Assembly (NCBI GenBank): GCA_021827525.1
Contig: JAKAVJ010000013.1
Span: forward strand, 9,191-73,190
Length of the DNA: 64,000 bases
Reading direction: 5' to 3'
DNA from: Candidatus Micrarchaeota archaeon
GTDB taxonomy: Archaea; Micrarchaeota; Micrarchaeia; Micrarchaeales; Micrarchaeaceae
The number at the start of each line of letters is the position of its first letter. Within the stretch, counting starts at the first letter, position 1. Positions 1,786 through 59,802 of the stretch are shown here, one piece after another. Made by a program: the position numbers and the translations under genes. A model generated the notes under the pieces. It had not been told where the DNA came from, searched no databases, and worked only from the letters and a program-made list of their open reading frames with translations.

Positions 1786-1845
1786 TTAATAAGATTGCCA
1801 ATCTAAAACGTATTTACGCAGTTTTTGTTTGAGAGGTGTATAGAA

Positions 1846-4831: not shown

Positions 4832-4945
4832 ATCCATGAGAGGCGGAGCTCCTGTGTATATTCCACAACAAGGAGCTATAGGCAAACTATTAATATCTGA
4901 CCTACTTATACCATATCGTACTTTTGCTTTCTTTTGGGGGTCAAC

Positions 4946-7009: not shown

Positions 7010-7020
7010 TAAATAGGATA

Positions 7021-12453: not shown

Positions 12454-12471
12454 TTGTATTTGCTCTGGTCG
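12454..12471. repeat. Direct repeat copy overlapping the 3' end of tRNA-Glu (proximal att-like site)
   Basis: TTGTATTTGCTCTGGTCG; partner at 9819..9836. Confidence 0.4.
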
Positions 12472-12535
12472 GGATTTGAACCCGAGTTTCGGCCTTGAGA
12501 GGGCCGCGTCCTTGACCGGGCTAGACGATCAGAGC
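12461..12535 (-). tRNA. tRNA-Glu(CUC)
   Basis: 75-nt cloverleaf on the minus strand. Acceptor GCTCTGA/CCAGAGC with one terminal A.C mismatch; D stem GTCT/GGAC; anticodon arm CGGCC-CTCTCAA-GGCCG; T arm TCGGG-TTCAAAT-CCCGA; discriminator A. Confidence 0.85.
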
Positions 12536-34783: not shown

Positions 34784-34920
34784 CTCTCCTTAGGCTTCTT
34801 GACAAGGAGTTTCATGAACAGTTTCGTCAATGGGTTTGTGTTTTGGCCTATGCGCTTGACTATCGTATATACGCGTATGTACCTCACTCTCTTATTTATC
34901 CTGACAGAATATATCATCAG

Positions 34921-35652
34921 CTATCCCTTTACTTCTATATATCCCAACGAGACCATCTTGTTCAGTATCTGCTCCACGCGGGGCGGAACGACCTTGTAGT
35001 TCTTTGAGAACTCGTTTACGTCTATGGTGCTCTCATGCGACTCTATCCAGTCCTCTATCAGCGCCATGAGCGATTCGTCGGAATAGCTCTCCAATGCGTC
35101 TAGCCTGCGCTTCATGTCGTCGTTATCTGACTTGAGCTGCGCTGCAGATGCAGTAAGATTCTTGTTCGAATTGGTGAGCTCTATGTTGAGCCTCCTCAGC
35201 TCCCTGTGCTCAGTAAGCAGCGCTTCGTAATTGTTAAACAGCGCGCTGTAGTTTTGCGACAGCGAATTGATAACGTCGTCTATCGCTGAATCCAGGTATT
35301 GGAACAGCTCGGTCTGGTTTACCTCGTACTGGTCCGTTATCAGTGACAGTATGCTTATCAAATTCCTGAGGACGTAAAGCTTGCGCATCTTGCTGCTCGT
35401 GTCCTTTGGTATAGAGTACTGCACGGATACGCCGCTCTGCGACATAGTAATTATGAAGAACAGGAAGGGTCTTTTCTGTATGTCACGGCTCTCTATCCTG
35501 AATAGCACTAGGCTGTTCTGCATTACCGATATGTAAAATACCTGCAGCGAGGTCAGCCTCGTAGATATGGCTTCGAAGCTGCCCTTCAGGGTAGCGCTAA
35601 TCTGGAATGAATCAACATCTGGTTCAGTGATGCCTATATTTTCCTCAGTCAT
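34921..35652 (-). CDS. Soluble coiled-coil protein with C-terminal wHTH-like module (cluster-associated)
   Basis: Heptad-rich segment LTEHRELRRLNIELTNSNKNLTASAAQLKSDNDDMKRRLDALE. C-terminal VPPRVEQILNKMVSLGYIEVKG. Confidence 0.55.
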   Translation of the reverse strand: MTEENIGITEPDVDSFQISATLKGSFEAISTRLTSLQVFYISVMQNSLVLFRIESRDIQKRPFLFFIITMSQSGVSVQYSIPKDTSSKMRKLYVLRNLISILSLITDQYEVNQTELFQYLDSAIDDVINSLSQNYSALFNNYEALLTEHRELRRLNIELTNSNKNLTASAAQLKSDNDDMKRRLDALESYSDESLMALIEDWIESHESTIDVNEFSKNYKVVPPRVEQILNKMVSLGYIEVKG

Positions 35653-35696
35653 GGACTCACAACACTATCGTGTTTTAAATTATTAAAGCTGATGTA

Positions 35697-36107
35697 TCAT
35701 TTGCTAAGGCGCTTTGGCCTATCCTTCTCTGCTTTATGTTTCTGGATGCTCAGCGCAGGTATATAGCTTGCTAGTGACAGCGCATACATGAATACTATCA
35801 CTGCGAAGCCGTACAGCAGGGATATAGGATTGCCATGGGAGCTGAAGAAAAGAGCCAGCGTGAACAGCACACCTATTATTACGTAGGTTATCTGCTTGCG
35901 CACATACTTGTCGCGCTGCTTGCTGTATTTCAAGTAGCAGTCTTTGCATACTACTAGCCTGTAGTTGCGGTATTTATGGAATATTTTCCTATTGACCCAC
36001 CTTATCGCAGCAATCACATAATCCTCCTTTACGGGAAGACCTTCCTTCGCTTCGCCACATATTATGCACCTCGGCTCGGTTTTCTTGTCTTTGTTCGCCA
36101 TGTACAT
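35697..36107 (-). CDS. Zinc-ribbon membrane protein (cluster-associated)
   Basis: CIICGE...VCKDCY four-Cys ribbon followed by two TM helices. Its start overlaps the upstream stop by 1 nt. Confidence 0.55.
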   Translation of the reverse strand: MYMANKDKKTEPRCIICGEAKEGLPVKEDYVIAAIRWVNRKIFHKYRNYRLVVCKDCYLKYSKQRDKYVRKQITYVIIGVLFTLALFFSSHGNPISLLYGFAVIVFMYALSLASYIPALSIQKHKAEKDRPKRLSK

Positions 36108-36415
36108 CAGTCCAAGTCTATCGAGGCGTTATATACCCTCCCTGTCTCGGCGCTGCTCTTCTGCTCGTCAATCATCTCAATCGCTTGGCTTATTGTTATG
36201 TCATCCATTCCAATCCTCCTGAAGACGTTCTTCATCTTGTCACGCGTCAGGCCGCTCTTCTCTAGCATAGATGCGAAGGTTATGACATTTATGTGCCTGT
36301 GGGATTTCTCCATGGATGCGAGGAGCGCCGTTATGTTCTTCTCGCTGACACCAAAGGCTACAAGTATCCTCCTGAGCTCTATCCTGCCCACTATCAGCGT
36401 ATTTTTATCAGCCAT
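36107..36415 (-). CDS. Small soluble helical protein carrying the same short module as the ATPase C-terminal tail
   Basis: LEKSGLTRDKMKNVFRRIGMDDITISQAIEMI aligns by eye with the ATPase tail LEDAGMPTSEMVMFLKSMGIEDTMISRIMTYA. Overlaps the ATPase gene by 8 nt. Confidence 0.55.
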   Translation of the reverse strand: MADKNTLIVGRIELRRILVAFGVSEKNITALLASMEKSHRHINVITFASMLEKSGLTRDKMKNVFRRIGMDDITISQAIEMIDEQKSSAETGRVYNASIDLD

Positions 36416-37922
36416 TCTTACCAGCGTACGTCATTATTCTGCTTATCATCGTGTCTTCTATGCCCATGCTCTTGAGGAACATGACCATCTCTGAGGTTGG
36501 CATGCCTGCGTCCTCCAACGCTGACATAAGCTCAGACACCTTCATCGTCCTCTGCTGAGCGTCGAACTTTCCCATTATGCTGTCGATATTGTCCGAGCTG
36601 ACATTATAGTCTATGAGCTTGTTCCTGAGCTCATCCTTTTCGAACTGGTAGTTCCTCTGGACAACGTTGGCAGAGAGCTCAGCCCTAGTCAGCACGTCAG
36701 TAAGGTCTATAGTATATACATAAAGGGGCTCTTCGCCCTGTATCCTCTCCAGTATGAACGTCTCGGGGAACCTGAGCGATGTCTGGAACGCCATCTCTAC
36801 CGCAGCCTGCCCTACACCGAACTTCGTTATCTCGGACCGTATGAAATCGGAGAAGTTGAGGGAGCCCTGTATATAGTTTATGAACTTCTCGAACTTTATC
36901 CTCATTATAAAAGTAGTGCCGACGTTTGAGAATATTGCTTCATTTATGTCTGTCGGGTTCTGCGATGCCACTATTAGACCGAACTGGTACTTTCTTCCCT
37001 CCCTGACTATCATTATGGCGTCGCTCTTCTCATCGCTCGCGACTTTCCAGGCCTCATCTAGCACAACCATTGTCTTCAGCCCCTTGCTCTCACTCCATCC
37101 TTCGAAGCGCATGCGTTCCTTAAGCGTCTGCAGTATGAACAGCGCCGCAAGGGCCCTGAAGCGCTCATCCGGCAGGCCGGATAAATCTATGTCCACTAGA
37201 CCTGAGCCCGCAAGCTTTTCCAGGTCTATGGTGCTCTTCCTTGCAAAGTAGTCCTCGCCCTCCCGTGCGAATTGCCTAAGCCTGTATATGGTGTTCTCAA
37301 GCTCTGCAGGATACTCATACGTTCCATCCTGCAGCTTCTCCTCGAGAAGCGCTATCACATCCTTCAGCGTTGGCACCTCTATTCCAGGCAGCGGTGGCTC
37401 AGAAACGTTGAAGCCCTTATTGGTGTACGATTGTTCTATTGCCTCTTCTGTAAGCCTCTTCTGCTCTGGGAATTCGGATATGTCCGTGAGCAAATCTAGA
37501 GAGTTCATTATCTGCTTGGTCCTGTCTAGGGGCTTCATGCCTGATAGGTCAAGCAGGTTTATGAAATCGCCCCGGCCAAGCGAGACTATGGTGCCGCCGC
37601 TCTGTTTGACCCATGGCTTATATTCCGCGGCCCAGTCTATTATAACGGCACTGGTTCCCCAGACATAGTATGCACGAATGAGGAATGTCTTAATGAAGTA
37701 GCTTTTCCCTGAGCCGGTTATGCCCACTATAGCCATATGCGGATTCGTGAGGTTGGCGTAAGTCCATGCAAATGGTACATGAAACATCTTAGTAGTGCCT
37801 ATGTAGACGGTCTTCTGCGGATCGCCTACGAGAACTGATGATGGAGGCTCTGGGGGCCTTGATATGAACGCCCTCTTCGCTATCTCGTTGCTCATTATAT
37901 TCTGGAATCTTACCAATGTCAT
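36408..37922 (-). CDS. VirB4/TrbE/HerA-type (FtsK-HerA superfamily) secretion or translocation ATPase
   Basis: Walker A IVGITGSGKSYF, then IIDWAAEY and FINLLDL (VirB4-like 'iNPld' position), Walker B MVVLDEAWKV, and REGRKYQFGLIVASQNPTD. Confidence 0.8.
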   Translation of the reverse strand: MTLVRFQNIMSNEIAKRAFISRPPEPPSSVLVGDPQKTVYIGTTKMFHVPFAWTYANLTNPHMAIVGITGSGKSYFIKTFLIRAYYVWGTSAVIIDWAAEYKPWVKQSGGTIVSLGRGDFINLLDLSGMKPLDRTKQIMNSLDLLTDISEFPEQKRLTEEAIEQSYTNKGFNVSEPPLPGIEVPTLKDVIALLEEKLQDGTYEYPAELENTIYRLRQFAREGEDYFARKSTIDLEKLAGSGLVDIDLSGLPDERFRALAALFILQTLKERMRFEGWSESKGLKTMVVLDEAWKVASDEKSDAIMIVREGRKYQFGLIVASQNPTDINEAIFSNVGTTFIMRIKFEKFINYIQGSLNFSDFIRSEITKFGVGQAAVEMAFQTSLRFPETFILERIQGEEPLYVYTIDLTDVLTRAELSANVVQRNYQFEKDELRNKLIDYNVSSDNIDSIMGKFDAQQRTMKVSELMSALEDAGMPTSEMVMFLKSMGIEDTMISRIMTYAGKNG

Positions 37923-37926
37923 AACA

Positions 37927-38760
37927 TCATCCCTGCATGTCGAAGTTAGAGGCTATCTCGTTATACTGGGTAGGCAGCGAGAAATTGAAATTGAATATCG
38001 AATATAGCTCCCTGCCCACTATCTTTATTATCTGGATATCCAACGAGCTCAGCGCAACCTGCAGACGCGCTTCCTGCGCAGCAAGGTTGTCCAGGGCAGA
38101 TTTCTCAGTAACACCCACACCGACCGTCTCTATGTACATTATCGTCGATATAGGCTTCTCGCCCTGAGCTATCCTGTCCATCTGCGTCTGTATTATGCTC
38201 TGCTTCCTCTGAAGCTCTTCCATTGCGGTATCTGTCTGCTTGCCGCTTTGCGCAAGGCGCGCCATTTGGAACTCTATGTATCCTCTCTTGCCCTCGAGCG
38301 CATCGCGGGCCTTCTGCACGTCCCTGCCGCAGGAGAGCACGTGGAACTTGAAAGGAAAGTCTATGCCGCTAACCGCTCTCTCCCACCTGTCCGGCGCCTC
38401 TGCTATCCTTGAATCGACGTCTTCTTCTGGGTTCTCAGCCTTGAACGTGTACGCGAACAGGTTGGCCGTGAGGTAACCTATAGCGTAGTGTATTCCGCCT
38501 ACACTCTTCACTATTGCATCCTGCGACTTCACTATCTTATAATCCTTCATCGGCTGGAAAGTTATGCCCAGCATCCTTGATACTGCAGGAAATACGATGA
38601 AGTCTATCCAGTTGAGCATGAGTATAAGAACGACTGCTATCAGCAGTATTATTACGGCTATGATCCTGTATATCCCTGGACCGAAGTGAGGCAGGAAAGA
38701 GAAGGTTATCAGCACTATAACCAAGCTGAACGTAAGATATATTATCCCGGTAGAATCCAT
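37927..38760 (-). CDS. Bitopic membrane protein (2 N-terminal TM plus ~200-aa cytoplasmic domain), paralogue A; VirB3/VirB4-N-terminal-domain-like by architecture
   Basis: 277 aa. Same length and layout as the adjacent gene. 4 nt upstream of the ATPase gene. Confidence 0.6.
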   Translation of the reverse strand: MDSTGIIYLTFSLVIVLITFSFLPHFGPGIYRIIAVIILLIAVVLILMLNWIDFIVFPAVSRMLGITFQPMKDYKIVKSQDAIVKSVGGIHYAIGYLTANLFAYTFKAENPEEDVDSRIAEAPDRWERAVSGIDFPFKFHVLSCGRDVQKARDALEGKRGYIEFQMARLAQSGKQTDTAMEELQRKQSIIQTQMDRIAQGEKPISTIMYIETVGVGVTEKSALDNLAAQEARLQVALSSLDIQIIKIVGRELYSIFNFNFSLPTQYNEIASNFDMQG

Positions 38761-39593
38761 TATATCACTTCCTCCTCTATGTTCTTGTTTATCTGCGCGC
38801 TTATAGTTGTCACGGGTATCATGTGCTCAGGCTCAACGAACTTCAGTATCTCCTCGCCGGTCACTATTGTGGGTGTCACGCCGAATGTGGTGCTCACCCC
38901 TGATATCACATCGCGGGCCTTCTGCTGCACAGCGCTCACAGCCTCGTACTCCTTGGTGCCTGTAGCTGATATGCTGGCATACGTGACTAGCTCTAGGGAT
39001 GTGCCCTTGCTTATAGTATCCAGCATGTTCCTCCACATGGCTATCTTGCCCTTCGCGCGCTCTATCTCGACCGCTGGCGCACTCCTCTGGCTGAGCTCCT
39101 CTGCTGCGTTCTCCGCAGCGTTGACATTGTCCCGTATCGTCTGCAGATATGCATCCTTATCCATCACGTACATCTGCGTAGAGTATCTTACCGGATCCTT
39201 GCTTATGCCAACCAGCCTGCTGACCTGATTGGCAAACTCAAGCTTTTCCTCTGGCTGCATCTCAGTTGCAGATCGGTATATTGGTATGGTCACATATACC
39301 GTAGCTATGAATGTGTCCTTGACTTTGCGTATTATCGAATCTGCAGAAGCGGAGAGCCAGTATGTGTTCTCTTTGTCGAGCATTATGTGCTTGCTCCTCT
39401 GCTTTACCATAGGTATTATTAGATATGAATAGTACCTTGATGCGAAAGCCAGGACTACGAAAAACATCGCGACCATAAGCAGAACAAGCTTGGCAAAATA
39501 TGGGAATATTGCGAGAGGCAGCTCTATTGCAGCTGCAAGCACTATTATTGAGGCGAATAGTAACCCTAGAAATATGAATATCTTATTGTCCAT
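38760..39593 (-). CDS. Bitopic membrane protein, paralogue B of 37927..38760
   Basis: 277 aa. Two N-terminal TM helices, then a soluble domain with the same order of segments (beta-rich, then a helical coiled region). 1-nt overlap with paralogue A. Confidence 0.6.
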   Translation of the reverse strand: MDNKIFIFLGLLFASIIVLAAAIELPLAIFPYFAKLVLLMVAMFFVVLAFASRYYSYLIIPMVKQRSKHIMLDKENTYWLSASADSIIRKVKDTFIATVYVTIPIYRSATEMQPEEKLEFANQVSRLVGISKDPVRYSTQMYVMDKDAYLQTIRDNVNAAENAAEELSQRSAPAVEIERAKGKIAMWRNMLDTISKGTSLELVTYASISATGTKEYEAVSAVQQKARDVISGVSTTFGVTPTIVTGEEILKFVEPEHMIPVTTISAQINKNIEEEVI

Positions 39594-39654
39594 TTCAAAC
39601 CTTCCTGCTGCCGGATCCCTAGAGACCCTTTCGTAACCTTTTATCTATTTTAAC

Positions 39655-41313
39655 TTATATAAATGTTCTCATTCTGCCGCTCATCTGCGATGCACCGCCT
39701 ATGAACGTCGCTATCTGTGTCACGAACGCATAAGTTACTGCGATTATAAGCAACGGATAGAACAGTATCAGGAGCCAGAAGCTGCTCATTGCCGATTGCA
39801 CAGAGCTTACCTGCGTCACGAGCGGGCTATCAGGCGTTATGGCATTGGTTATCGCACCGGAGCCCTGGCCGAAACGGTTCAACTGAATAGAGGCGGTAGA
39901 GAGGGTGTGCAGTATGCTCGGCGCCGTGAAGTAATAAGCTATTGCGAACATGGTCGGCATTATTATGTAGAACCCCATTGCCAGTGCGATGAGCATGCCG
40001 CCTAGCGCCCTTGTCGGGAATATGGCCCTGAATATCACGCCAGGAACAAGGAATACTGGTATGGATGCAACCGAGAAGAATACTAGCAGGTAGTATTCGG
40101 CGTACAGAGCGGTTATGCCCTCTATTATGAAGGTTCCCAGCACCATAGAGGGCTCTATAACCAGCGCTTCCAGGGGCAGTGAGTACAATAGCGTCAGCAG
40201 TGATATCGGCGGCGCGCCTGTTATTGGAAAGGCTATTTCTACATTTAGCGAGGCGTAGAATGAATCCATGATCACAACATTGTATAGGCTGGAGAACACG
40301 CCTTCAGCCTGCTGTATTGTGGAGAGGATAAGATGGAAAGCGGTAGCGTACGGGTTTATGGTCCCCACAAAAAGCGACGGTATTATGCCGAACGCCACGG
40401 CGCTCACATACAGGAACAGCCCGACGATTATGGCGCTGGCAATTGCTTCATAAAGCTCGCCAATGCCGAAGTTGCGCATCCTGTCGTTCCTTAGGCCTGC
40501 TCCGACCATGAATATTATTGCCGCTATAGAGAATGCGACAAGTATCGCAGCGAAAGCTATGGGCGTCTCGGAGCTCCACGTATCGTAGACCTGCTCGTTT
40601 ATTGGGCAGTACCACGGTGCACTGCTCTCTATCTGCGATACTATCGAATTGGGCAGCAGCCCGCATCCCCCAGGTATTGACGTGGTTGTAGTGCTGACTG
40701 TTGCTGTACCAGAAGCAGAATTAGATGCGCTTTTCGATGCACTGTTCGAAGCGCCGTTGGATGAGCTTGACGCACCGTTAGAAGCACCGGATGCGCTTTT
40801 CGATGCACCGTTCGAAGCGCCGTTGGATGAGCTTGACGCACCGTTAGAAGCGCCGGATGCGCTTTTCGATGCACTGTTCGAAGCGCCGTTGGATGAGCTT
40901 GACGCACCGTTAGAAGCGCCGTTGGATGAGCTTGACGCACCGTTAGAAGAAGACGTCGGTGAGGTTTTTGACCCACATTTTACACCTCTAATTGGTTGAC
41001 CATTCTGAAAGCTGCATATTATATTTACCGACGGGCAGCCCGACGGGCAACCGCCAGAGCAGAGCGTAAGGCTGCCGCATGACACTTCTGTGTTGCATGA
41101 GCATTTTGGCAGGAACGAAAGGCTTTCGGATTGGGGCGCCTGCGCGGCAGTCATGTTAGAATAGGATATGTTAGAGTAAGATATGGAATGCTGTATAGGC
41201 ACGCTTGAGGTGCTACCAGTTTGCGCTGGCTGCATGCTTAGCGAGGCGTATGCGAATACAGTTATCACTGCAAATATCGCAGCGATTACCAATAATGGAA
41301 TTGCTCTGGACAT
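39655..41313 (-). CDS. Polytopic membrane protein, tandem paralogue 6 of 6, with Cys-rich ectodomain and Ser/Asn/Gly/Ala linker
   Basis: Signal-anchor; a 10-Cys segment CSCNTEVSCGSLTLCSGGCPSGCPSVNIICSF..VKC; (SSSNGASNGASKSA)n linker; membrane core with GELYEAIASAIIVGLF and IFRAIFPTRALGGMLIALAMGFYIIMP. Confidence 0.7.
   Translation of the reverse strand: MSRAIPLLVIAAIFAVITVFAYASLSMQPAQTGSTSSVPIQHSISYSNISYSNMTAAQAPQSESLSFLPKCSCNTEVSCGSLTLCSGGCPSGCPSVNIICSFQNGQPIRGVKCGSKTSPTSSSNGASSSSNGASNGASSSSNGASNSASKSASGASNGASSSSNGASNGASKSASGASNGASSSSNGASNSASKSASNSASGTATVSTTTTSIPGGCGLLPNSIVSQIESSAPWYCPINEQVYDTWSSETPIAFAAILVAFSIAAIIFMVGAGLRNDRMRNFGIGELYEAIASAIIVGLFLYVSAVAFGIIPSLFVGTINPYATAFHLILSTIQQAEGVFSSLYNVVIMDSFYASLNVEIAFPITGAPPISLLTLLYSLPLEALVIEPSMVLGTFIIEGITALYAEYYLLVFFSVASIPVFLVPGVIFRAIFPTRALGGMLIALAMGFYIIMPTMFAIAYYFTAPSILHTLSTASIQLNRFGQGSGAITNAITPDSPLVTQVSSVQSAMSSFWLLILFYPLLIIAVTYAFVTQIATFIGGASQMSGRMRTFI
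40724..40948. repeat. In-frame 66-bp tandem repeat (~3.4 units) encoding the Ser-rich linker
   Basis: The unit GATGCGCTTTTCGATGCAC(C/T)GTTCGAAGCGCCGTTGGATGAGCTTGACGCACCGTTAGAAGC(A/G)CCG starts at 40724, 40790 and 40856, followed by a partial unit. Confidence 0.9.
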
Positions 41314-41315
41314 GC

Positions 41316-42416
41316 TTACACCAAGTTACCAATAAGGGCCATGAAGCTGACCTTCTCGCCCATCACCTTTGAAAAGTCCACTATGAATGCGTCTAATATG
41401 GTGAAATTCAGGAAGGGCACGAAAGTGAGGCCCGCTATCACATACCCGTATTGCAGCAGGAGAGTCCCCAGATATGATGGGAAGCTTCCGGATATATATG
41501 TGGCGAACAGTCCTGCTACCAGGCCCGTAGCGCCTGATGCTAAGTTGTATATTCCCGCCAATGCGCCTGAGATTGTAGATGGGTTGCCCAATGAAACTAG
41601 CGTCTGCGTAGTTATGAAGCCATAGGTTACCGAGACCAAAAGGGGGAACACTATTCCGAGGCCCAAGCCGAAAGCTATCATTGCGCCGCCAAAGCTCCTT
41701 GATATGCCGAAGACCCATGCTATCAGACCTATTGCCATGAAAAGGGCTATGAAGAATATTGATCCGGATAGCAGTATCAATTGAACCTCGTTGAGCAGTA
41801 TCATAAACAGCAGCGCATTGAACGCAATGCCTAGAATTTCGTCCATAGATTTCGGGAATAGGCTATTGATGCCAAATGAGAAGCCGGTTCCGTCTGAATC
41901 GAATGGGACATTGACCTTGACGGAGAACCCGGGCGTGAGACCGGCAACGTATGATACGCCGTACAGCAGGCTGAAGTAGCCCTTCGATATCGCTATGAAG
42001 CTGCCCATGTCGCAAGCGGATAGGTTGAATATTGTATCGCTCGCAGCTCCTGTGCATGTGCTCGGAAGCAGATGTGCGCTGCTTACGGACTGGCTCGGAC
42101 TTAAGAACATCATCGAATATAACCCGAGAAATATCACAATCAGCATTATCCCTATGAGTGCCTCGTATATCTGGGCGCGCGCCCAGCTCCTGCCATTAGG
42201 GCTGTCCAAGGCGAAGCTGACTGCATAAATCAGTGCCGCAATCAGTATAACCACAATGACTGCAATCAGAGCTATGTCATACCACGGAGGTATGAAGCTG
42301 GTGACGAATGACTGAGGCGCGGAGGATGCCGCAGAAGCGGTGTGCAGCAGCATCACGGCTAGCATAGCAATCGCGACCGAGACCCGTATTGCACTTCTTG
42401 AAACCATGCCAATCAT
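41316..42416 (-). CDS. Polytopic membrane protein, tandem paralogue 5 of 6
   Basis: Signal peptide. AQIYEALIGIMLIVIF and the degenerate core motif LIAWVFGISRSFGGAMIAFGLGLGIVFP. Confidence 0.7.
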   Translation of the reverse strand: MIGMVSRSAIRVSVAIAMLAVMLLHTASAASSAPQSFVTSFIPPWYDIALIAVIVVILIAALIYAVSFALDSPNGRSWARAQIYEALIGIMLIVIFLGLYSMMFLSPSQSVSSAHLLPSTCTGAASDTIFNLSACDMGSFIAISKGYFSLLYGVSYVAGLTPGFSVKVNVPFDSDGTGFSFGINSLFPKSMDEILGIAFNALLFMILLNEVQLILLSGSIFFIALFMAIGLIAWVFGISRSFGGAMIAFGLGLGIVFPLLVSVTYGFITTQTLVSLGNPSTISGALAGIYNLASGATGLVAGLFATYISGSFPSYLGTLLLQYGYVIAGLTFVPFLNFTILDAFIVDFSKVMGEKVSFMALIGNLV

Positions 42417-42431
42417 CTATCCCTCTTCAGT

Positions 42432-43508
42432 TCACAGCACCCTCTTCAGCGTATTGCTTGAAGACAGGCTCGGCGCTCCGAGCGCGTCGCCTATCAGCTC
42501 CATGAAGTCGTACGAGACTATAAGCGATATTATGAGCACGAATATTGTAAATATCATCGGCTCGACTATGACATTTATAAATGGCGTGATTATATCGAAT
42601 GATATCATTTGAAGTACCGTGGTGAGGAAAGTACCTGTTGATTGTATGAAACTGCTTGGGCTGCTCAGGAACGAATTTGTATTTATTACAGGCAAAACCG
42701 ATGAGGTGGGCGATGCCTGCAGCATGAAGTACAGCAGGGTAGGGAACATGAGGTAGAACGCGATGAAAAGGCCCAGGAAGGCTCCGCCTGCTGCCCTTGT
42801 CCACGGAATCGTACGCAGTATTATTCCCAAGAACAGGAATATCGGGAATACTGAATAGATTATGGCTAGGAAAACTATGAGTGCTATGAAGAGCCCTGCA
42901 AGGCCCCCGGCAATGCCTATGAATAGGTTAAGTATGTGGTACAGAAGGCCGAAGGCCTTAAATGGTACGAAGCTTATGCCGAAATACAGCGGCATTATGT
43001 TCACCCTAAAATCACGCAGAAGCTGGAGGTAGTATGTCTCTGGTATGAAGTAAGTGGAGAGCGACCTGAATACGTCGACCGACGAGCCCGCAAGGAGCGT
43101 GCAGTCGTTGTAATACGTGTTGTATGTGCTTGACGGGCCTATCTTTATGAAACCTGATGGAGATATGGAGTATATTGCGCCGAAAAATATTAGGACTACA
43201 AGCAACGTCACGACTATCTCGCCCATCTCTGCCTTCGAGAACTGCACAAGCTTCTCGACCTTGAATGAATAGCCTATCATATACGTTATGCCTATCACCA
43301 GCGCCACAAGAGCCAGTATGAGCATGGATATGCCGAGCATGCCGCCATAAGAACTCGAATGAAGCACCGCATTGGACTGCACTATTGCGCTGTTGCAGAA
43401 TGCGGAGTTGGTCGCATCCCCTGTGCTAGCAGCAGAGACGTTGCCCAGAAGCAGCAGCAAGGCTAGAACCAGCGCCGCACCCTTTGCATATGCGTATGCC
43501 CTTCTCAT
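42432..43508 (-). CDS. Polytopic membrane protein, tandem paralogue 4 of 6
   Basis: Signal peptide. KAEMGEIVVTLLVVLIF and IILRTIPWTRAAGGAFLGLFIAFYLMFP. Confidence 0.7.
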   Translation of the reverse strand: MRRAYAYAKGAALVLALLLLLGNVSAASTGDATNSAFCNSAIVQSNAVLHSSSYGGMLGISMLILALVALVIGITYMIGYSFKVEKLVQFSKAEMGEIVVTLLVVLIFFGAIYSISPSGFIKIGPSSTYNTYYNDCTLLAGSSVDVFRSLSTYFIPETYYLQLLRDFRVNIMPLYFGISFVPFKAFGLLYHILNLFIGIAGGLAGLFIALIVFLAIIYSVFPIFLFLGIILRTIPWTRAAGGAFLGLFIAFYLMFPTLLYFMLQASPTSSVLPVINTNSFLSSPSSFIQSTGTFLTTVLQMISFDIITPFINVIVEPMIFTIFVLIISLIVSYDFMELIGDALGAPSLSSSNTLKRVL

Positions 43509-43515
43509 AATATCA

Positions 43516-44967
43516 CTATACGAACCTCGAAAGGCCTGCGAGGTTGGTATCGCCTCCGAGCAGGCCGGACAGGCCGATTATTGCAGTCAGTGTTATCAAT
43601 ATGTTCACAAGTGGCAGGACGTATGCGGTTATGCCCGTTATGCCGTATGCATTCAGCACCTGGAACATGGTGCCCTCCGCATTCGTTGGAGTGCATGCAG
43701 AAGGCAGATAGAAGTATGGCAGTGAGCTTGGCAGGCCTCCCGAAGCACCCTTTATTAGGGGCAGCAGGCCTTCTACAGCGGATGCAAAAGGAACCAGCAG
43801 TATGCCGGTATCCTCTGCCTGGGTCAGGGCCAGGTTGCCGCCGGGGGGCCAGCAGTTGTTTGCCTGCGCTATCTTCTTTATGCTTGGCTCCACGAAGAAA
43901 TTAGGGGTATAGTCGGGCAAGGCGGTAATGGAATTTGTAGTTATGCCGTTGAAGCCGTAGGCAGTGCTAAGCGTAATGCCCGTGGAGCCGATCTCGCTGT
44001 TCACGTTCATGCTGCTCAGCGATACATACTCAATTGCGAATACTGCTGGATAGAACAGCACCGCCCCTATGGCAACGGCTATGAAAAGCCCGCCTATCCT
44101 CCTAGTGAAGGGCGTCGCCCTGAATATCAGCCCTATGAACAGGATGTACGGCCATATGTACAGGAATATGATTATGAACAGGAGCTGGGCGACATCCATT
44201 TCAAGCGATGTGCCTAGAAGCTCGCCTATAACGCCCATGGGCTTGTACACCATTGAGTACCCTGCATAGGGTGTGTATGTAGCATTTATGAATGAGATGG
44301 CAGGATTTACGTCTTCTTCTGGAGGTATTATGCATGGCCCGGCGGGATTTATAAAGTCCTGCAGGCAGAATGACAGCGAGGGCGTGAGCGTCTCCATGTA
44401 GCCTAAGAAGAAGTCGACTTCGAAGAACGAATTAAGGTTTACTATGCTCTGGTTCGTAAGGTTTGCGATCACGACCCCTGCGGAAGCCAGCGGGTAGTCT
44501 ATGTTAGTCGTGGCGGTAGGATTGCTGGACTGCGTCGATATGTAGTTGCACAGCCCTCCGAAAGACGGGCCCGAAGAGCTAGAGAATCCTTTGAGCAGCG
44601 AAAACGAGCTTATACCGAAAGAGGGCGGTCCGAGTATGGAGAGCGGTGAATATGATTCTATTCCGCTGCACATGCTTGACATGCTCGATGTTGACATTGC
44701 GCCGCCGCTCGAAATTAGGGAGAATATATTGCCCGCAAACACCAGTATGGTGAGCACTATGACCGTTATGACAGCGGTGCCGGCAAGCTGGTAGAACTCG
44801 CCTCTTGCTGAATCCTTCACCTTCGTGCTGTTAAGCAGTATGCCCAGCACGTACCATACGCTCACTATCACCGAATCGAGGAGCAGCGCAAGCACGACTA
44901 TTGGCAGAAGGTCGGACTTCACAGTAGATATGGATGTTATCTGCAATAATATTCCAGGCGCTATCAT
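43516..44967 (-). CDS. Polytopic membrane protein, tandem paralogue 3 of 6
   Basis: RGEFYQLAGTAVITVIV and LIFRATPFTRRIGGLFIAVAIGAVLFYP. Large central ectodomain. Confidence 0.7.
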   Translation of the reverse strand: MIAPGILLQITSISTVKSDLLPIVVLALLLDSVIVSVWYVLGILLNSTKVKDSARGEFYQLAGTAVITVIVLTILVFAGNIFSLISSGGAMSTSSMSSMCSGIESYSPLSILGPPSFGISSFSLLKGFSSSSGPSFGGLCNYISTQSSNPTATTNIDYPLASAGVVIANLTNQSIVNLNSFFEVDFFLGYMETLTPSLSFCLQDFINPAGPCIIPPEEDVNPAISFINATYTPYAGYSMVYKPMGVIGELLGTSLEMDVAQLLFIIIFLYIWPYILFIGLIFRATPFTRRIGGLFIAVAIGAVLFYPAVFAIEYVSLSSMNVNSEIGSTGITLSTAYGFNGITTNSITALPDYTPNFFVEPSIKKIAQANNCWPPGGNLALTQAEDTGILLVPFASAVEGLLPLIKGASGGLPSSLPYFYLPSACTPTNAEGTMFQVLNAYGITGITAYVLPLVNILITLTAIIGLSGLLGGDTNLAGLSRFV

Positions 44968-44972
44968 TCAAA

Positions 44973-46613
44973 TCACAGATTGTTCCAGAACGACGCAGCA
45001 CCCTCTATTCCAGTATTCAATGCCTTTGTGAGGCTCATGGCGAACGCCACTGTTATGGCTATATTCAATGCAAATAATATAACACCTATGAATATGAACT
45101 GCGACATCAGGTTCACGATAGAGTTAGATATTGTTATAGGCGTATACGGATTGTATACGCCGGAAAGCCCAAGGCTGCTCACGCCTGAGATGAGGCTAAG
45201 CTCTGACGGCGCGGCTATGCCGAATGGAAGCGTCGAAGGCGAGCTGCTTGATGCGCTCGAGAAGAATGTTGATGGCAGCTGTGTCAATGTGAATCCCATG
45301 TTCAGGTACGGATAAAGGGGGTTCTGAACAGAGAATATCCAATGCACCATGTACGCATCGAGCGCTATGGTCAGCGGATATATCAGGTAGAGCGCTATCG
45401 CTAACGCCAAAACGGCGTTGGCTACGTTGCGCAGCCCTGACCCGCCCGCGCCGGTATATGCTATTGACCTTATTATTATGGCCACGGGAAGCAATAATGT
45501 GAATGCGGTAAGCTTTATGAGCGGCAGCGCTAGGTACTGCAGGAATAACATGCCTATGGTTATCACCAGTATCGGCGAGAACAGATCCATGTACAGATCA
45601 GCAATGAGATAATAGCCTATGCTTAGGTCGTACCCCTCCAGAACGTTCATAGATACGCCTGGCGCTATGGTAATCGTCGGTATTTCGAGCTTCCCCGACA
45701 GTTGCGCTGCCATATATGAGTATACTCTTGCATCTATGCTGAACGCTATCGAATCGGAATATATATTCGTGAGAAGCCTCAAGCCTGTGTTCATGCTAAG
45801 GTTGCCGATGTAGTAGTCTGAATACGTAAATGGACCGAGCGATGTGCCTGTAAGCTGCTGGCTTATTGACGAAGATATGCCGCATGCTGCGCTCGAGAAG
45901 AATATGAGCAGCGTTATTATGAGTGCGCTTATCAGGAGCTGCGTCATCTCAATCTTGGTTATGCCGGCGATGGTGCTCTTGGTCCTTGGGGGCATGATCC
46001 TGCCAATGGCATACAGAACTGCCATTACCATGAAGCCGATTATTATCACAAGGTAGTTTATTGGAAGCCAGTCGTTGGTGTAGTCTGAATTTCCGTACAG
46101 GGTGCACGCCTGTATGGGCTGCGATGGCGGCGGAGCCGTGACGGTTATGGCAGAAGCTGAGTTTGTAGATGAGGATGCGCTGTTTGAAGCGCTGTTGGAG
46201 GCGCCGGTGGAGGCGCTGTTGGAAGCAGAATTGGAGGCTGAGTTGGTGGGTGCACCGGGGGTCAGCACGGTCAACACTTGACCACTGCTGTATGTATTTG
46301 TCGATATATCGTAAGCATAAAAGTATTTGTAGGTGCCAGCTTGAAGGCTGCCCGCAGGATATGTATAGGTAGCCGTGCCGAATCCGAAAGCCAGTTCCTG
46401 GTTTTCGGTGGGGTACCTTATTTCGCACAGACGATTGAGTATAGTCTTACCCGGGCATTGGGCTGTTATTGTAACTGTGGATGTTGTGCTTGCTGGATTG
46501 GGGCTTATAGTAAGTGTAGGCGATGCTGCTTTGGCGACTGCCGATGAATGCACTAGCATTATTATCAGTATGAGTGCGTAAATGGGAAACATCCTTGTTT
46601 TTGCGCTTTTCAT
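44973..46613 (-). CDS. Polytopic membrane protein, tandem paralogue 2 of 6, with Ig-like ectodomain and Ser-rich linker
   Basis: Signal peptide; beta-rich N-terminal domain; NSASNSASNSASTGASNSAS linker; KIEMTQLLISALIITLL and IIIRSIAYTGAGGSG...LALAIALYLIYP. Confidence 0.7.
   Translation of the reverse strand: MKSAKTRMFPIYALILIIMLVHSSAVAKAASPTLTISPNPASTTSTVTITAQCPGKTILNRLCEIRYPTENQELAFGFGTATYTYPAGSLQAGTYKYFYAYDISTNTYSSGQVLTVLTPGAPTNSASNSASNSASTGASNSASNSASSSTNSASAITVTAPPPSQPIQACTLYGNSDYTNDWLPINYLVIIIGFMVMAVLYAIGRIMPPRTKSTIAGITKIEMTQLLISALIITLLIFFSSAACGISSSISQQLTGTSLGPFTYSDYYIGNLSMNTGLRLLTNIYSDSIAFSIDARVYSYMAAQLSGKLEIPTITIAPGVSMNVLEGYDLSIGYYLIADLYMDLFSPILVITIGMLFLQYLALPLIKLTAFTLLLPVAIIIRSIAYTGAGGSGLRNVANAVLALAIALYLIYPLTIALDAYMVHWIFSVQNPLYPYLNMGFTLTQLPSTFFSSASSSSPSTLPFGIAAPSELSLISGVSSLGLSGVYNPYTPITISNSIVNLMSQFIFIGVILFALNIAITVAFAMSLTKALNTGIEGAASFWNNL
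46149..46250. repeat. Low-complexity imperfect short repeats encoding (N/T/G)SAS linker
   Basis: Degenerate reiteration of GCGCTGTTGGAGGC-like units on the plus strand, in frame within 44973..46613. Confidence 0.7.
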
Positions 46614-46624
46614 CTAATCGCTCT

Positions 46625-47863
46625 TCATGCAAGTTTCATCCTTCCTATTCCAAGCCTCAGAGAGCCCCCTAGCAGCGACGCTATGTGCTGGACTATGACT
46701 ATGCCTATTATCAGGTCCAGTATGAAAAGTATGAACTGCAGTATCGCCACCAGGAAAGCCTGCGACAGTATTATGTTGAATGCCGGATATATGTCTGCAT
46801 AGCTAGCCATGCCGTATCCGAATCCTGTAAATATCTGGCTATTCGCGTTAGAAGCGTATAGCATGGTGTTGATAACGCTTATCGCCCCGCTGTAGAAGGC
46901 GCATTCTATTGGGTTCCATCCACTAGGGCAGGAATTTGACAGAGTAGGTATGGTTGTGGGCGGGATATAGCTGCTTATTGGAACGTTGATGGCAAGCAGA
47001 AGCGCAGGGTATACTAGCGACGCGCCTATGCCGAGCGCCAAGAAAGTGCCGCCGAGAGGCCTTAGTATTGGAATGGCTCTGAGCACTATCCCTACAGGCA
47101 AGAGGACGCCGAACCCTATTGCTATGATGGACGCCAAAAGGTCTTGCTGCACCTGCAATATTATCGTAACAGGGACTAGGATGACCTTTCCTATATCTGT
47201 AAGCAGAGAGAGGCCAGGGTCCGATATGGAGGATATTACGCTGCTCACATAGAGGTTCTCATCGACACCGAAATCGAGCGATCCTATTGTAAACACCGGC
47301 ACTATAGGGATGGGTATGTATAATGACAGCGTCATACTCTTCCATACGCCTATGCCGTCATATAGGCCGAGTAAATTGTAGAATGCGGTATCTACGTTCT
47401 GCAGCTCCGGGGTAAAGTAGGATGTTTGAAGCGCGGTGTAGACCATGCCTATGTTACTGGTTATTTCGCTGCTTGCTGTGCTGCTGCTAGTTGTCAACGA
47501 TGAGCTCGGCGCGCCGACATAGCTCGCAGCTATGCTGCTTAGCACTATGAACAGCGAAAATATCAAGACTATTATCAGTATGGACTTCACAGCCTCCCTG
47601 AGCTCGTTCTGGTACCATCCTTTCAGCGCGCTTATGTTGAAAACGCTGCCGAGCATGTATGATATAGCAACAAGCAGGAACGAGAACAGAACACCGAATA
47701 ATGCCAATGGTATCGCCGACACTACGCAGTTGCCAAGCGTGGTGTCCGAGCCGGTGACCAGGCAGTATGGAGTTGTCTGAAAGCTAGGGCTCGCGTACAC
47801 AGGCTTTGCTGCGAATGCTAGCAGCAATACGGCAAAAAGCATTACTTTGCTCCCGTGGCGCAT
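46625..47863 (-). CDS. Polytopic membrane protein, tandem paralogue 1 of 6
   Basis: Signal peptide. QNELREAVKSILIIVLIF and IVLRAIPILRPLGGTFLALGIGASLVYP. Confidence 0.7.
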   Translation of the reverse strand: MRHGSKVMLFAVLLLAFAAKPVYASPSFQTTPYCLVTGSDTTLGNCVVSAIPLALFGVLFSFLLVAISYMLGSVFNISALKGWYQNELREAVKSILIIVLIFSLFIVLSSIAASYVGAPSSSLTTSSSTASSEITSNIGMVYTALQTSYFTPELQNVDTAFYNLLGLYDGIGVWKSMTLSLYIPIPIVPVFTIGSLDFGVDENLYVSSVISSISDPGLSLLTDIGKVILVPVTIILQVQQDLLASIIAIGFGVLLPVGIVLRAIPILRPLGGTFLALGIGASLVYPALLLAINVPISSYIPPTTIPTLSNSCPSGWNPIECAFYSGAISVINTMLYASNANSQIFTGFGYGMASYADIYPAFNIILSQAFLVAILQFILFILDLIIGIVIVQHIASLLGGSLRLGIGRMKLA

Positions 47864-47929
47864 AGAATAATATAGGGACTAATATTTATAATCCATACTA
47901 TGTATGCATCGAGAGCGGCGAAGCGCACC

Positions 47930-48661
47930 TCACCTCTTCAGCAGCGCAAACCTCTTCATGTACATCTCGCTCTGCAGCACTACGAGAAACGGCAGTATGA
48001 ACAATGAGTTGAACACGACCATTATATAGCGTGACAGAAGAGTCCCTGTCGCCGCTATGAATATGAAATCAAACAGCGTTATCAGCACTATAGCTATAGC
48101 AAGCCATAGCAGGAAATAGTCGAAGCGCTTTATGATGAATCTCAGGCTTGCCATCATTGCCCTGCCTACGGGCTTCTCGTCTATGACTATGGAGCTGGGC
48201 GCATAGAAGAAGAAAGGAGCGAGTATCAGCGCAGCCGCATATGTGAACAGGCCTGAATGCCCTATTGAGAAAGACGCCATGTTGATCAGGTACAATATTA
48301 CAGCGTAGGCTATGAGCACTGCGAATGTGCTGCCTGTATATCTCTCCAGCCCGTCCATTATCTCCTTGCGTATCCTCGTGTGTATCCTGCCGTATTTCAC
48401 AAGTATGTTTATCGCTACGATAGCAAAGCTCAGGAAAAGCAGCGAGAAGAACACCGATGCCACTATTATCGACGCGCTGATTGCGTTGAGGTTGACGAAT
48501 ATGCTTGCAGTCCTTATGAATATCGCGCCGGCATCATTGTATGTTGGGAGCGGCGCGAGGCCAGGTATTATAAAAGCTATGAGGAATGATATCGAGAAAA
48601 GCAGTATCAGACGAAGGTGCTTCGCATAGAAGTCAAACGAATAGCTTAGCACGTTCACCAT
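47930..48661 (-). CDS. Six-TM integral membrane protein (cluster-associated, no recognised family)
   Basis: 243 aa, evenly spaced hydrophobic helices, basic C-terminus. Confidence 0.6.
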   Translation of the reverse strand: MVNVLSYSFDFYAKHLRLILLFSISFLIAFIIPGLAPLPTYNDAGAIFIRTASIFVNLNAISASIIVASVFFSLLFLSFAIVAINILVKYGRIHTRIRKEIMDGLERYTGSTFAVLIAYAVILYLINMASFSIGHSGLFTYAAALILAPFFFYAPSSIVIDEKPVGRAMMASLRFIIKRFDYFLLWLAIAIVLITLFDFIFIAATGTLLSRYIMVVFNSLFILPFLVVLQSEMYMKRFALLKR

Positions 48662-48698
48662 TTAATCACAAGAAGGATTAGGAAGGAAATATTAAAAG

Positions 48699-48722
48699 GG
48701 TTAATGGAAAAACCCATTAACC
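48699..48722 (-). terminator. 9-bp perfect stem-loop 3 nt after the stop of the pilin-like gene (possible attenuator or partial terminator)
   Basis: GGTTAATGG-AAAAAC-CCATTAACC. On the minus strand it is followed by CTTTTAATATTT. Confidence 0.45.
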
Positions 48723-48725
48723 TAT

Positions 48726-49115
48726 TTAGGAGCAGGCTGCGGTTATGCTGGCCACGGAAGCCGAGCTTCCCATTATCAGGCCGAGCAGGAACGGCGCTAT
48801 CTCTGCTATTATCACGCCTATGACCCCTCCCAGGATCATGCCCATGCCGTATCCCTGAAGCGTCGACTTGCTCTGGCCGGGCATAATGTGCGAAGCTGCA
48901 TAGAGCGCCGCGCCGCCTATCATCAGTGCAAGTCCCAGTATGAATATTGCCGTGTGCACTACGGTGTATATTATGCATATCTGCGAAGTCACAGTGCTTA
49001 CTATGCTGTTCCCTGCCGCTGACATCGTCGCTATGAAGCTAAGCATCAGAAGAGGCAGCATCAGCACCTTAATGTTACGGCTTAACCAATCCAAAAGACC
49101 GAATATTTTTGGCAT
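48726..49115 (-). CDS. Small two-helix membrane protein with long leader; VirB2/TrbC/CedA1-like pilin candidate
   Basis: 129 aa. Leader ending ...SFIATMSAAG, then helix ICIIYTVVHTAIFILGLALMIGGAALYAA, polar loop SHIMPGQSKSTLQGYG, and helix MGMILGGVIGVIIAEIAPFLLGLIMG. First gene of the cluster. Confidence 0.6.
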   Translation of the reverse strand: MPKIFGLLDWLSRNIKVLMLPLLMLSFIATMSAAGNSIVSTVTSQICIIYTVVHTAIFILGLALMIGGAALYAASHIMPGQSKSTLQGYGMGMILGGVIGVIIAEIAPFLLGLIMGSSASVASITAACS

Positions 49116-59731: not shown

Positions 59732-59802
59732 AGCCAGGAGAGGGAATTGAACCCTCCTACACCGCTCTGCAGGCGGTTGCATAGCCAATCTGCCATCCTG
59801 GC
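59732..59802 (-). tRNA. tRNA-Cys(GCA)
   Basis: Acceptor GCCAGGA/TCCTGGC; anticodon arm ACCGC-CTGCAGA-GCGGT; T arm GAGGG-TTCAATT-CCCTC; discriminator U73 (Cys identity element). 71 nt. Confidence 0.85.

Follow-up and report, generated by a model that had tools for sequence, protein, structure and literature searches.

We find that six tandem genes of a Candidatus Micrarchaeota archaeon, here named G1 to G6, encode paralogous polytopic membrane proteins, and we suggest that this array is probably the membrane platform of a Ced/Ted-like machine, derived from type IV secretion, located on the chromosome and inherited vertically in Micrarchaeota. The array was studied in a window of 64,000 nucleotides, by which we mean the whole stretch of DNA that was analysed (GenBank assembly GCA_021827525.1, contig JAKAVJ010000013.1, positions 9,191 to 73,190), and it occupies the middle of an operon of 15 minus-strand genes that covers ~16.7 kb (window positions 32372-49115) and comprises U2, U1, G1-G6, D1, D2, a P-loop ATPase gene, D4, D5, E1 and E2. 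Three of these components point by different routes to the same kind of system: U2 to the VirB2-type pilins in Pfam, G4 to CedA in NCBIfam, and D2 to VirB4 in structural comparisons with Foldseek. For each of them the family given here recurs as the top match by a wide margin, and as the three agree with each other and the ATPase is compatible with them, a chance explanation is unlikely.

The six-gene array

The first-pass annotation of this DNA had described six tandem paralogous membrane genes, and both the open reading frame (ORF) listing and the profile comparisons bear this out, coordinates and spacing included. The intergenic gaps from G1 to G6 are 11, 5, 7, 15 and 2 nt. Pairwise BLASTP matches among the six proteins are weak yet colinear, and paralogy was therefore tested by profiles, for which six per-family alignments of 71-79 orthologues each were compared with HHalign. 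All 15 pairs aligned with a probability of 96-99.5% and E-values of 4e-9 to 2e-22 (1e-14 to 2e-22 for G1 against G2-G6, and 4e-9 to 8e-14 for G2). As a control, the same profiles reached less than 10% probability against the other membrane proteins of the locus, the sole exception being G2 against the pilin candidate U2, to which we return below. By these comparisons G1-G6 are true, anciently diverged paralogues, and no seventh member of the family was found within the window.

The array was traced through 82 loci, 80 of them from scanning a single genome of each GTDB species for a pattern and two from an exact-protein look-up, and in these loci each of G1-G6 is a separate orthologous group. 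The six genes stand in the same order in 73 of the 82, the others being cut by contig ends (eight) or containing a split ORF (one), and the full run from U1 through G1-G6, D1 and D2 to the ATPase is found in 57. As all six are found in this order, the duplications predate the sampled radiation, and no paralogue is dispensable. A profile search of 1.84 billion representative proteins gave 3128 relatives at E <= 1e-3, of which the best 150 are all close, and a word-indexed search with the alignment of the six sequences gave 28 matches.

Hydropathy gives G1-G6 a common core of a signal peptide and five transmembrane (TM) helices, and in each family three membrane modules can be recognised, namely TM1-loop-TM2, TM3-motif-TM4 and TM5-tail. 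The lengths of these modules are near constant within each family (median standard deviation 1 residue), and every family has invariant module lengths and conserved residues of its own. Length differences of tens to hundreds of residues occur in the N-terminal segment and in the TM2-TM3 and TM4-TM5 loops, in agreement with the earlier remark that the inserts differ in size. Cysteines are found almost only in these variable segments, several of them conserved as pairs, and the segments carry a net negative charge; lysines and arginines sit in the TM1-TM2 and TM3-TM4 loops and, in G1 and G6, also in the tail. Because the signal peptide, the charge and the Cys distribution point the same way, these indirect indicators together with hydropathy lead us to predict an N-out, C-in topology with five TM helices and the variable parts outside, and the Cys content and negative charge of those parts favor the outward-facing ectodomains that the first reading had proposed. 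Agrobacterium VirB6 is reported to have the same layout, with five TM helices, an N-out, C-in orientation and a large central loop on the outside.

The core motif, in its general form R-x5-R-x2-G-G-x(12-16)-P, was found in 354 of the 381 members of G1, G3, G4, G5 and G6; among shuffled sequences it occurs in 4 of 7620, and among G1 orthologues in all (71/71). It is thus well supported as a shared feature, as first described, but it is not universal: no G2 protein (0/71) has the strict motif, the G2 family having instead a variant with an insertion, R-S-x-x-[FY]-x-G...L-R-x-x-A-N, and in the window copy of G5 a W replaces the first motif Arg. These variants had been listed faithfully by the earlier reader. 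The view that the motif is intramembrane did not hold, as both motif arginines are located in the TM3-TM4 loop and the charge and Cys distribution place the motif in what is predicted to be a short cytoplasmic loop between these two helices. A loop in this position is more likely to be a docking site for cytoplasmic components than to line a pore. Two further positions that had been pointed out are a Glu in the junction that follows TM1 (E97 of G4) and a Gly in the tail past the last helix (G344 of G4); each reaches at least 90% conservation in an alignment of 44 sequences that combines G4, G1 and G5 orthologues with the six window proteins. The AlphaFold2 (AF2) model of G4 (pLDDT 77.9, pTM 0.70) is all-helical and contains helices of 39 and 48 residues, which must project beyond the membrane.

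Much of the variation lies at the N-termini. In the window, G2 has an N-terminal ectodomain of 182 aa (a beta-rich segment followed by an S/N/A-rich linker; family median 23 aa) and G6 one of 249 aa (a Cys-rich segment followed by an S/N/G/A-rich repeat linker; family median 74 aa), and G3 has the largest extracytoplasmic loops, with many Cys and N-x-S/T sites. The linker of G6, between the ectodomain and TM1, is encoded by a tandem DNA repeat (Table 1). In the closest relative (L003) G6 is 516 aa long, 36 aa below the 552 aa of the window. Elsewhere in the families N-terminal additions reach 237 aa in G1, 356 aa in G5 and 364 aa in G6. Some lineages have giant N-terminal ectodomains, with proteins of 911 aa in G1, 818-853 aa in G2, 1045 aa in G4 and 887 aa in G5; the loci with such paralogues are L047, L048, L058 and L001. 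When 108 members of the six families (18 per paralogue) were compared with Pfam, single members matched Big_3_5 (Ig-like; 6e-15), SprB (2.6e-4) and, very weakly, PKD (E 0.22). The large N-terminal ectodomains may be adhesin modules fused to platform subunits.

The same variability could be read in another way, namely that the machine is type IV secretion-like but that the six proteins are alternative, interchangeable VirB6-like subunits, serving different hosts, conditions or surface variation, as has been proposed for the VirB6 and VirB2 paralogues of Anaplasma and Rickettsia. Ectodomains that are strongly unlike between paralogues and between lineages, the Ig-like, SprB and very weak PKD matches of single members, a repeat-encoded linker in G6 that could change its length, and a pilin copy number of one to three would all fit such a set. 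We nevertheless consider it unlikely, since orthology is strictly 1:1 and the order fixed in every complete locus (73/82), the families keep their own invariant TM-module lengths and conserved residues, and it is the N-terminal add-ons that vary and not which paralogues occur. The spacing of 2-15 nt moreover suggests co-translation in a fixed ratio. We therefore favor a platform in which all six paralogues are used together.

Probable relationship to type IV secretion proteins

Direct scans of the six window proteins against Pfam and NCBIfam gave nothing significant. Among 49 G4 orthologues, 10 matched the NCBIfam model NF041796, Ced_CedA ('DNA import protein CedA'), with a best E-value of 3.6e-9, and every other NCBIfam family was matched by at most three of the 49. 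In the Ced system, by which crenarchaea import DNA, CedA is the channel protein homologous to VirB6 (PMC9905601). The region of similarity is consistent, comprising TM3, the loop, TM4 and TM5 (protein residues 172-313 or 192-333, model positions ~96-240 of 259). The orthologue P0027 matches at 9.6e-5 and the G4 of the window at E 0.22, over residues 172-313 and model positions 96-232 of 259. The other five families are linked to CedA only through their HHalign ties to G4.

The first gene of the operon, U2, encodes a candidate pilin with a signal peptide and two hydrophobic helices that are joined by a short basic loop, P-G-x-x-K-G-x-x-Q-G. Within a set of 34 U2-family members, 16 matched Pfam PF04956 (TrbC/VirB2; best 6.3e-7) and 10 matched PF18895 (T4SS_pilin; best 9.3e-7). 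The number of pilin copies ranges from one to three, as some genomes have two or three divergent tandem copies. Two cysteines are also conserved in the family, the first shortly ahead of helix one and the second at the C-terminal end (C47 and C128 in the window); loci noted for the pilin are L039, L001, L045 and L056. A C47-C128 disulfide could tie the ends of the hairpin together, loosely recalling the head-to-tail cyclised TrbC and T-pilins.

The platform proteins themselves show some resemblance to the pilin. The TM1-TM2 hairpin of G2 (residues 165-235) aligned with U2 residues 42-106 at a probability of 83.7% (E 8e-6), and a merged hairpin profile of all six families aligned with U2 at 35% (E 3.9e-4), where controls reached 0.5-4%. 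The corresponding hairpin of G5 weakly matched NF045849, a pilin-like conjugal transfer model (E 0.0096), and one further member among the 108 scanned had a weak match to a pilin model. The N-terminus of CedA is reported to be related to CedA1, and VirB6 to VirB2 (PMC9905601), and the likeness of the hairpins to U2, which is suggestive only, echoes this kinship.

D1 and D2, directly downstream of the array, are paralogous to each other (probability 96.8%, E 3e-10, HHalign), and their profile had no match in Pfam or among PDB sequences. For the AF2 model of D2 (pLDDT 80.9, pTM 0.65) the top six PDB matches in Foldseek are all TrwK/VirB4 of plasmid R388 (E 7e-3 to 8.5e-2, probability 0.95-0.99, TMq 0.32-0.37, with alignments of ~190 columns), and the next-best PDB match had a probability of 0.21. 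No similarity between D1/D2 and the ATPase family of the operon was detected by HHalign. Because the model of D2 resembles TrwK/VirB4 without any similarity to the ATPase domain, D1 and D2 would be the counterpart of the VirB4 N-terminal domain, and they look as if this domain had been split off, without ATPase motifs. A precedent is found in Ced, where published work equates the N-terminal domains of CedB and of CedD with portions of that of VirB4 (PMC11868833).

The ATPase has intact Walker A (VGITGSGKS) and Walker B (VVLDEAW) motifs and lacks both the N-terminal VirB4 domain and TM helices. It scored above the cut-offs of DUF87 (57.4 bits), AAA_10 (48.9) and P-loop_TraG (42.3) in Pfam and matched CedD (1e-19), CedB (1e-17) and VirB4/TraC families (3e-17 to 3e-15) in NCBIfam. 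Residues 57-326 align with the structure of the VirB4 C-terminal domain (PDB 4ag5), and the protein also has matches to plasmid TraC genes; of the 2538 plasmids matched, 2204 are conjugative.

A number of results weigh against assigning the operon to type IV secretion. All CedA scores are far under the 330-bit equivalog cut-off of the model, the matches span only about half of it, and they arise through one family of the six, G4, with a single match (1/108) in the mixed set. In that set none of the 108 members matched the Pfam TrbL/VirB6 model (PF04610) at E <= 1, and the G4-family profile found nothing among PDB sequences. A Foldseek comparison with VirB6, which the first-pass annotation had proposed as a check, was made with the G4 model and gave no significant match in the PDB; TrwI/VirB6 (8rt9_F) did rank third, at E 0.98, probability 0.21 and a TM score of 0.24/0.29. 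The family profiles likewise gave nothing significant in HHalign against the single R388 sequences of TrwI, TrwK, TrwL, TrwM, TrwG and TrwJ, a null outcome that is expected when profiles are compared with single sequences at such a distance. The window U2 on its own is not significant against the Pfam pilin models, and the U2 profile retrieved no pilin of any kind from the PDB sequences, a copy in which the presence of the CedA1 and TedC chains was not confirmed. The best E-value between D2 and VirB4, 7e-3, falls short of 1e-3, the part of VirB4 that is aligned not being reported. The ATPase is equally close to the defence proteins HerA and DndH of PADLOC (4e-20 and 7e-20), and it is therefore not diagnostic of type IV secretion by itself. 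Lastly, in ~10 loci the D1-ATPase module is not found beside the array on either strand, and the operon thus consists of two separable modules.

These points could be taken together to mean that the complex is unrelated to type IV secretion, for instance a novel secretion, surface-layer, cell-division or defence complex with a generic HerA/FtsK-type ATPase, in which the resemblances of the membrane proteins would be artefacts of hydrophobicity or of common folds. The sub-threshold links, the G4 model without a significant structural match, the scores of HerA and DndH alongside Ced and VirB4, and the lack of a recognised relaxase or coupling protein among the operon products would be accounted for in this way. 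We hold it to be improbable, because U2, G4 and D2 independently indicate one system by three different methods, whereas the other membrane families of the locus gave no recurrent database match. Ced and Ted are, moreover, likewise without relaxase and coupling protein (PMC9905601), and in PADLOC no non-ATPase component matched at E 1e-4, D2 and D5 having isolated weak matches to GajA and Cas8b. A defence system was rejected, as it is only the ATPase that matches PADLOC strongly. The low CedA scores indicate distant relatives, and the results taken together support the view that the six-gene family is distantly related to the CedA/VirB6-type proteins and does not consist of CedA orthologues. 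The parallel with VirB6 drawn at first pass would thus reflect real but distant homology, given the CedA matches of G4 orthologues and an operon that also contains the pilin candidate, the VirB4-like D1/D2 and the ATPase.

Operon partners and chromosomal setting

Between U2 and the array lies U1, which adjoins G1 in 68 loci, with a mean column identity of 56%, and for which 35 members gave no Pfam match. On the other side, D4 is a homologue of the C-terminal helical domain of the ATPase (residues ~424-500; HHalign probability 98.3%, E 1.8e-14, and 97.2% in a second comparison), and helix motifs of the form G-[LMI]-x-x-[DE]-x-[IM] are repeated in D4. As a domain that occurs both fused and free, it may be a module for binding substrates or partners. 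The consensus of D5, found in 55 loci, keeps a CxxC...CxxC pattern. E1 is conserved downstream in 57 loci, has weak Pfam matches under cut-off to ZapB and EAP30, and possibly ends in a winged-helix-like C-terminus. E2, conserved in 56 loci, reads as a protein anchored at its N-terminus, with a large ectodomain rich in N-x-S/T sites, a second TM helix and a putative cytoplasmic domain of ~210 aa, and is without a match in Pfam or PDB; searches with U1, E1 and E2 gave no family. No operon protein has a relaxase or type IV coupling protein (T4CP, VirD4) domain above cut-off in Pfam or NCBIfam.

Table 1. Position of the operon genes, repeats and flanking features in the window
Feature	Position	Strand	Remarks
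DnaK	1825-3699		
DnaJ	3722-4831		
MCM	4934-7009		
Archaeal RNase P RNA	7020-7255	minus	88.6 bits, just over the gathering score of 84
tRNA gene	12461-12535	minus	
E2	32372-34783	minus	803 aa; last gene before the convergent topoisomerase VI-B
E1	34921-35652	minus	243 aa, cytoplasmic coiled-coil
D5	35697-36107	minus	136 aa; Cys4 zinc-ribbon-like N-terminus and two C-terminal TM helices
D4	36107-36415	minus	102 aa, soluble; homologue of ATPase C-terminal helical domain
VirB4/CedB/HerA-type P-loop ATPase	36408-37922	minus	504 aa; ~80-aa helical C-terminal domain
D2	37927-38760	minus	277 aa; 2-TM hairpin and putative VirB4-like non-ATPase domain
D1	38760-39593	minus	277 aa; N-terminal 2-TM hairpin and ~215-aa cytoplasmic domain
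G6, CedA/VirB6-like paralogue 6	39655-41313	minus	552 aa
Tandem DNA repeat inside G6	40724-40949	none	66-nt unit x3, 97% matches; alternatively 33-nt unit x6.4
G5, CedA/VirB6-like paralogue 5	41316-42416	minus	366 aa
G4, CedA/VirB6-like paralogue 4	42432-43508	minus	358 aa; shortest of the six
G3, CedA/VirB6-like paralogue 3	43516-44967	minus	483 aa
G2, CedA/VirB6-like paralogue 2	44973-46613	minus	546 aa; variant loop motif
Tandem DNA repeat inside G2	46173-46226	none	12-nt unit x4.5; encodes the linker from ectodomain to TM1
G1, CedA/VirB6-like paralogue 1	46625-47863	minus	412 aa
U1, polytopic membrane protein	47930-48661	minus	243 aa, ~6 TM; strongly conserved
U2, VirB2/TrbC-type pilin candidate	48726-49115	minus	129 aa; first gene of the operon
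tRNA gene	59732-59802	minus	

The earlier reading had guessed at a host-associated or DPANN organism, and the DNA does come from a Micrarchaeota genome. Homologues of the array are almost only from metagenome-assembled genomes of Micrarchaeota, with ARMAN-2-like sequences among them, as well as Ca. Mancarchaeum acidiphilum and Ca. Micrarchaeum sp. A_DKE, which is in culture. The whole operon is present in A_DKE, and at least the D2 gene (P0304) in Ca. Mancarchaeum acidiphilum (Mia14); public annotation calls the homologues 'hypothetical' or, generically, 'membrane protein' only. Two loci with the full array, L018 and L019, are filed as 'Methanothrix sp.' and 'Candidatus Acidiferrales bacterium', and several others as 'Marsarchaeota'. 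Such outlying labels are most likely binning or labelling errors and not true occurrences outside Micrarchaeota.

The loci in which the D1-D2-ATPase-D4-D5 module is absent downstream of G6 are L013, L024, L028, L029, L038, L040, L043, L046 and L076. Several kb of flank are present in these module-less loci, and in L028 unrelated minus-strand genes follow G6, with topoisomerase VI-B nearby.

The window contains, besides the features in Table 1, genes for ArgRS, LysRS and topoisomerase VI-B, and this set of DnaK, DnaJ, MCM, tRNA synthetases, RNase P RNA, tRNAs and topoisomerase VI-B identifies it as core chromosome. Topoisomerase VI-B flanks the array in 35 loci and a carbamoyltransferase in 23, the identity of orthologues, ~30-90%, tracks genome divergence, and the GC content is level across the window. 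A scan of the IMG/VR viral contigs with the G4 alignment found no relatives, nor did a tblastn search of plasmids with G4 alone. As it has conserved housekeeping flanks, even GC and no relatives in the G4 searches of viral contigs and plasmids, the operon is, judged from this genomic context, chromosomal and vertically inherited in Micrarchaeota. That it might be an integrated conjugative element or another mobile island, which comes to mind because type IV secretion genes are typically on mobile elements and because the Mia14 paper speculated on conjugative elements in genomic islands (PMC5498576), is very hard to reconcile with neighbours that recur across divergent genomes, orthologue identities that follow genome divergence, the even GC content, the G4 searches of viral contigs and plasmids, and the scans of operon proteins, which recognised neither integrase nor relaxase.

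Two other genes of the window may be relevant to display at the cell surface, with no link to the operon: a 717-aa protein with Ig_3 and SprB repeats at 10273-12426 on the plus strand, probably a surface protein, and a 519-aa membrane protein of the exosortase/archaeosortase family at 57618-59177 on the minus strand.

Proposed mechanism and comparison with known systems

We suggest a mechanism that is modelled on the structure of the R388 machine (PMC9259494) and on Ced (PMC9905601, PMC11868833). One copy each of G1-G6 would assemble over a hexameric ATPase into a platform that is hetero-oligomeric and probably ring-like, a proposal for which the strict 1:1:1:1:1:1 conservation in 73 of the 82 loci is the one line of support. 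The length-invariant TM modules, the Arg/Gly cytoplasmic loop and the C-terminal tails would dock onto D1/D2 and the ATPase. The long outside helices and variable ectodomains would make up an outward base, at which the U2 pilin could be pulled from the membrane and polymerised, as VirB6 is the site of pilin polymerisation in R388 (PMC9259494, PMC11294453), and the lineage-specific ectodomains would supply surface contacts. The resulting pilus or tube could move macromolecules between two partners, the Micrarchaeon and a Thermoplasmatales host that has no wall, and to judge from Ced the likeliest of these is DNA. The stoichiometry, the formation of a pilus, its cargo and the direction of transport are all proposed here by analogy, as are contact with a partner cell and a role in transfer between host and symbiont. 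As six fixed paralogues stand opposite a presumably six-fold ATPase, a pseudo-hexameric ring of the six is suggested, which we find an attractive arrangement.

Where DPANN archaea get the things that they are unable to make is a central question, and for Micrarchaeota no machine dedicated to such transfer has been named. Nucleotide biosynthesis is lacking in Ca. Mancarchaeum acidiphilum Mia14, and ARMAN cells have been described as joined to Thermoplasmatales by pili-like links (PMC5498576). The operon may be how Micrarchaeota swap material with their hosts. We also put forward, as a tentative and less probable extension, that the operon builds these pili or tubes and provides these auxotrophic archaea with the main uptake route for host DNA, nucleotides or other macromolecules, with a pseudo-six-fold hetero-hexamer matched to the hexameric ATPase as its core, and that it is the archaeal counterpart of the essential system of the candidate phyla radiation (CPR) that is discussed below. 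Such a pseudo-six-fold hetero-hexamer, if true, would be without a counterpart among the type IV secretion systems described.

We found no paper that describes this system in Micrarchaeota or other DPANN archaea, in a search that covered subscription journals in part; neither the Mia14 nor the A_DKE genome paper has any mention of it, and papers on Ced/Ted, nanohaloarchaea and Patescibacteria that were consulted gave no description either. A machine of the Ced/Ted-like kind is already known; the new traits are the suggested fixed six-fold VirB6-like heteromer, the putative split VirB4 and the DPANN home. About 15 proteins that are annotated as 'hypothetical' or as generic membrane proteins thereby become a concrete, testable candidate for a type IV secretion or Ced-like pilus apparatus, and the archaeal Ced/Ted family would extend past Crenarchaeota into DPANN. 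The operon could also serve as a natural experiment on the change of VirB6 from a homo-oligomeric platform into a fixed six-member heteromer, and of VirB4 into separate proteins.

The Ced system found in Sulfolobales and Desulfurococcales (CedA, CedA1, CedA2, CedB, CedD and CedE; PMC9905601, PMC11868833) is likewise archaeal, chromosomal and derived from type IV secretion. Both have VirB6-like polytopic proteins, and CedA is the only curated family that the six-gene family matched; both combine these with a two-helix VirB2-like pilin and a HerA/VirB4-type ATPase, and both do without relaxase, coupling protein and outer-membrane parts. Ced also has paralogous VirB6-like subunits (CedA and the five-TM CedE) and paralogous VirB4-like parts, CedB and CedD, the N-terminal domain of each mapping to a different region of that of VirB4 (PMC11868833). 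The differences lie in the six VirB6-like paralogues in a fixed array, where Ced has one or two, and in the putative VirB4-like non-ATPase domains, which are the separate 277-aa proteins D1 and D2 and are not fused to the ATPase. Furthermore, the U2 pilin is nearer to the bacterial TrbC/VirB2 Pfam models, the scores are far under the CedA and CedB equivalog cut-offs, the operon has the additional conserved genes U1, D4, D5, E1 and E2, and its host is a DPANN symbiont and not a free-living crenarchaeon. Ted of Thermoproteales (TedA, TedB and TedC; PMC9905601) is, by its published description, a minimal set of VirB6-, VirB4- and VirB2-like proteins in one locus, with a pilin whose signal peptide is cleavable, as that of U2 appears to be. 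It differs in a single TedA with seven predicted TM helices, compared with six paralogues of five each, and in a full-length VirB4.

Among bacterial systems, the VirB/Trw machine of R388 is the template for the division of labour that we propose, with a TrwI/VirB6 pentamer, TrwK/VirB4 as a hexamer of dimers, and TrwL/VirB2 (PMC9259494, PMC11294453). There, a polytopic VirB6 platform with long protruding helices stands above the VirB4 ATPase, and VirB2 is polymerised at this platform (PMC9259494, PMC11294453). The D2 model resembles TrwK, whereas G1-G6 have no detectable sequence similarity and no significant structural similarity to TrwI, and VirB5, B7, B8, B9, B10 and B11 were not recognised in the operon. 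The VirB6-like set would be heteromeric here and is homomeric in R388.

The Rickettsiales rvh system, which the first-pass annotation had named as a parallel, has four or five tandem VirB6 paralogues (PMC2653234, PMC7648143) and shares with the array an obligately host-associated organism with a reduced genome as well as large lineage-specific extensions on some of the paralogues. In contrast, it is an effector-secreting system of double-membrane bacteria, and its paralogues are recognisable members of the TrbL/VirB6 family. The expansions of VirB6 in rvh and in Micrarchaeota are independent, an analogy and not a shared duplication. The chromosomal system of the Patescibacteria (CPR) offers a parallel in lifestyle, as these are ultrasmall epibionts with a conserved monoderm-type system without relaxases (PMC12102498). 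It consists of VirB4, VirB3, VirB6 and VirB2 arrays, and its genes are reported to be essential for epibiotic growth in one cultured species (PMC12102498). Unlike the operon described here it is bacterial and homologous to the conjugation machinery of Gram-positives, and no six-fold expansion of VirB6 has been reported for it. The parallel with this essential system suggests that ultrasmall symbionts of both domains have convergently retained machines derived from conjugation.

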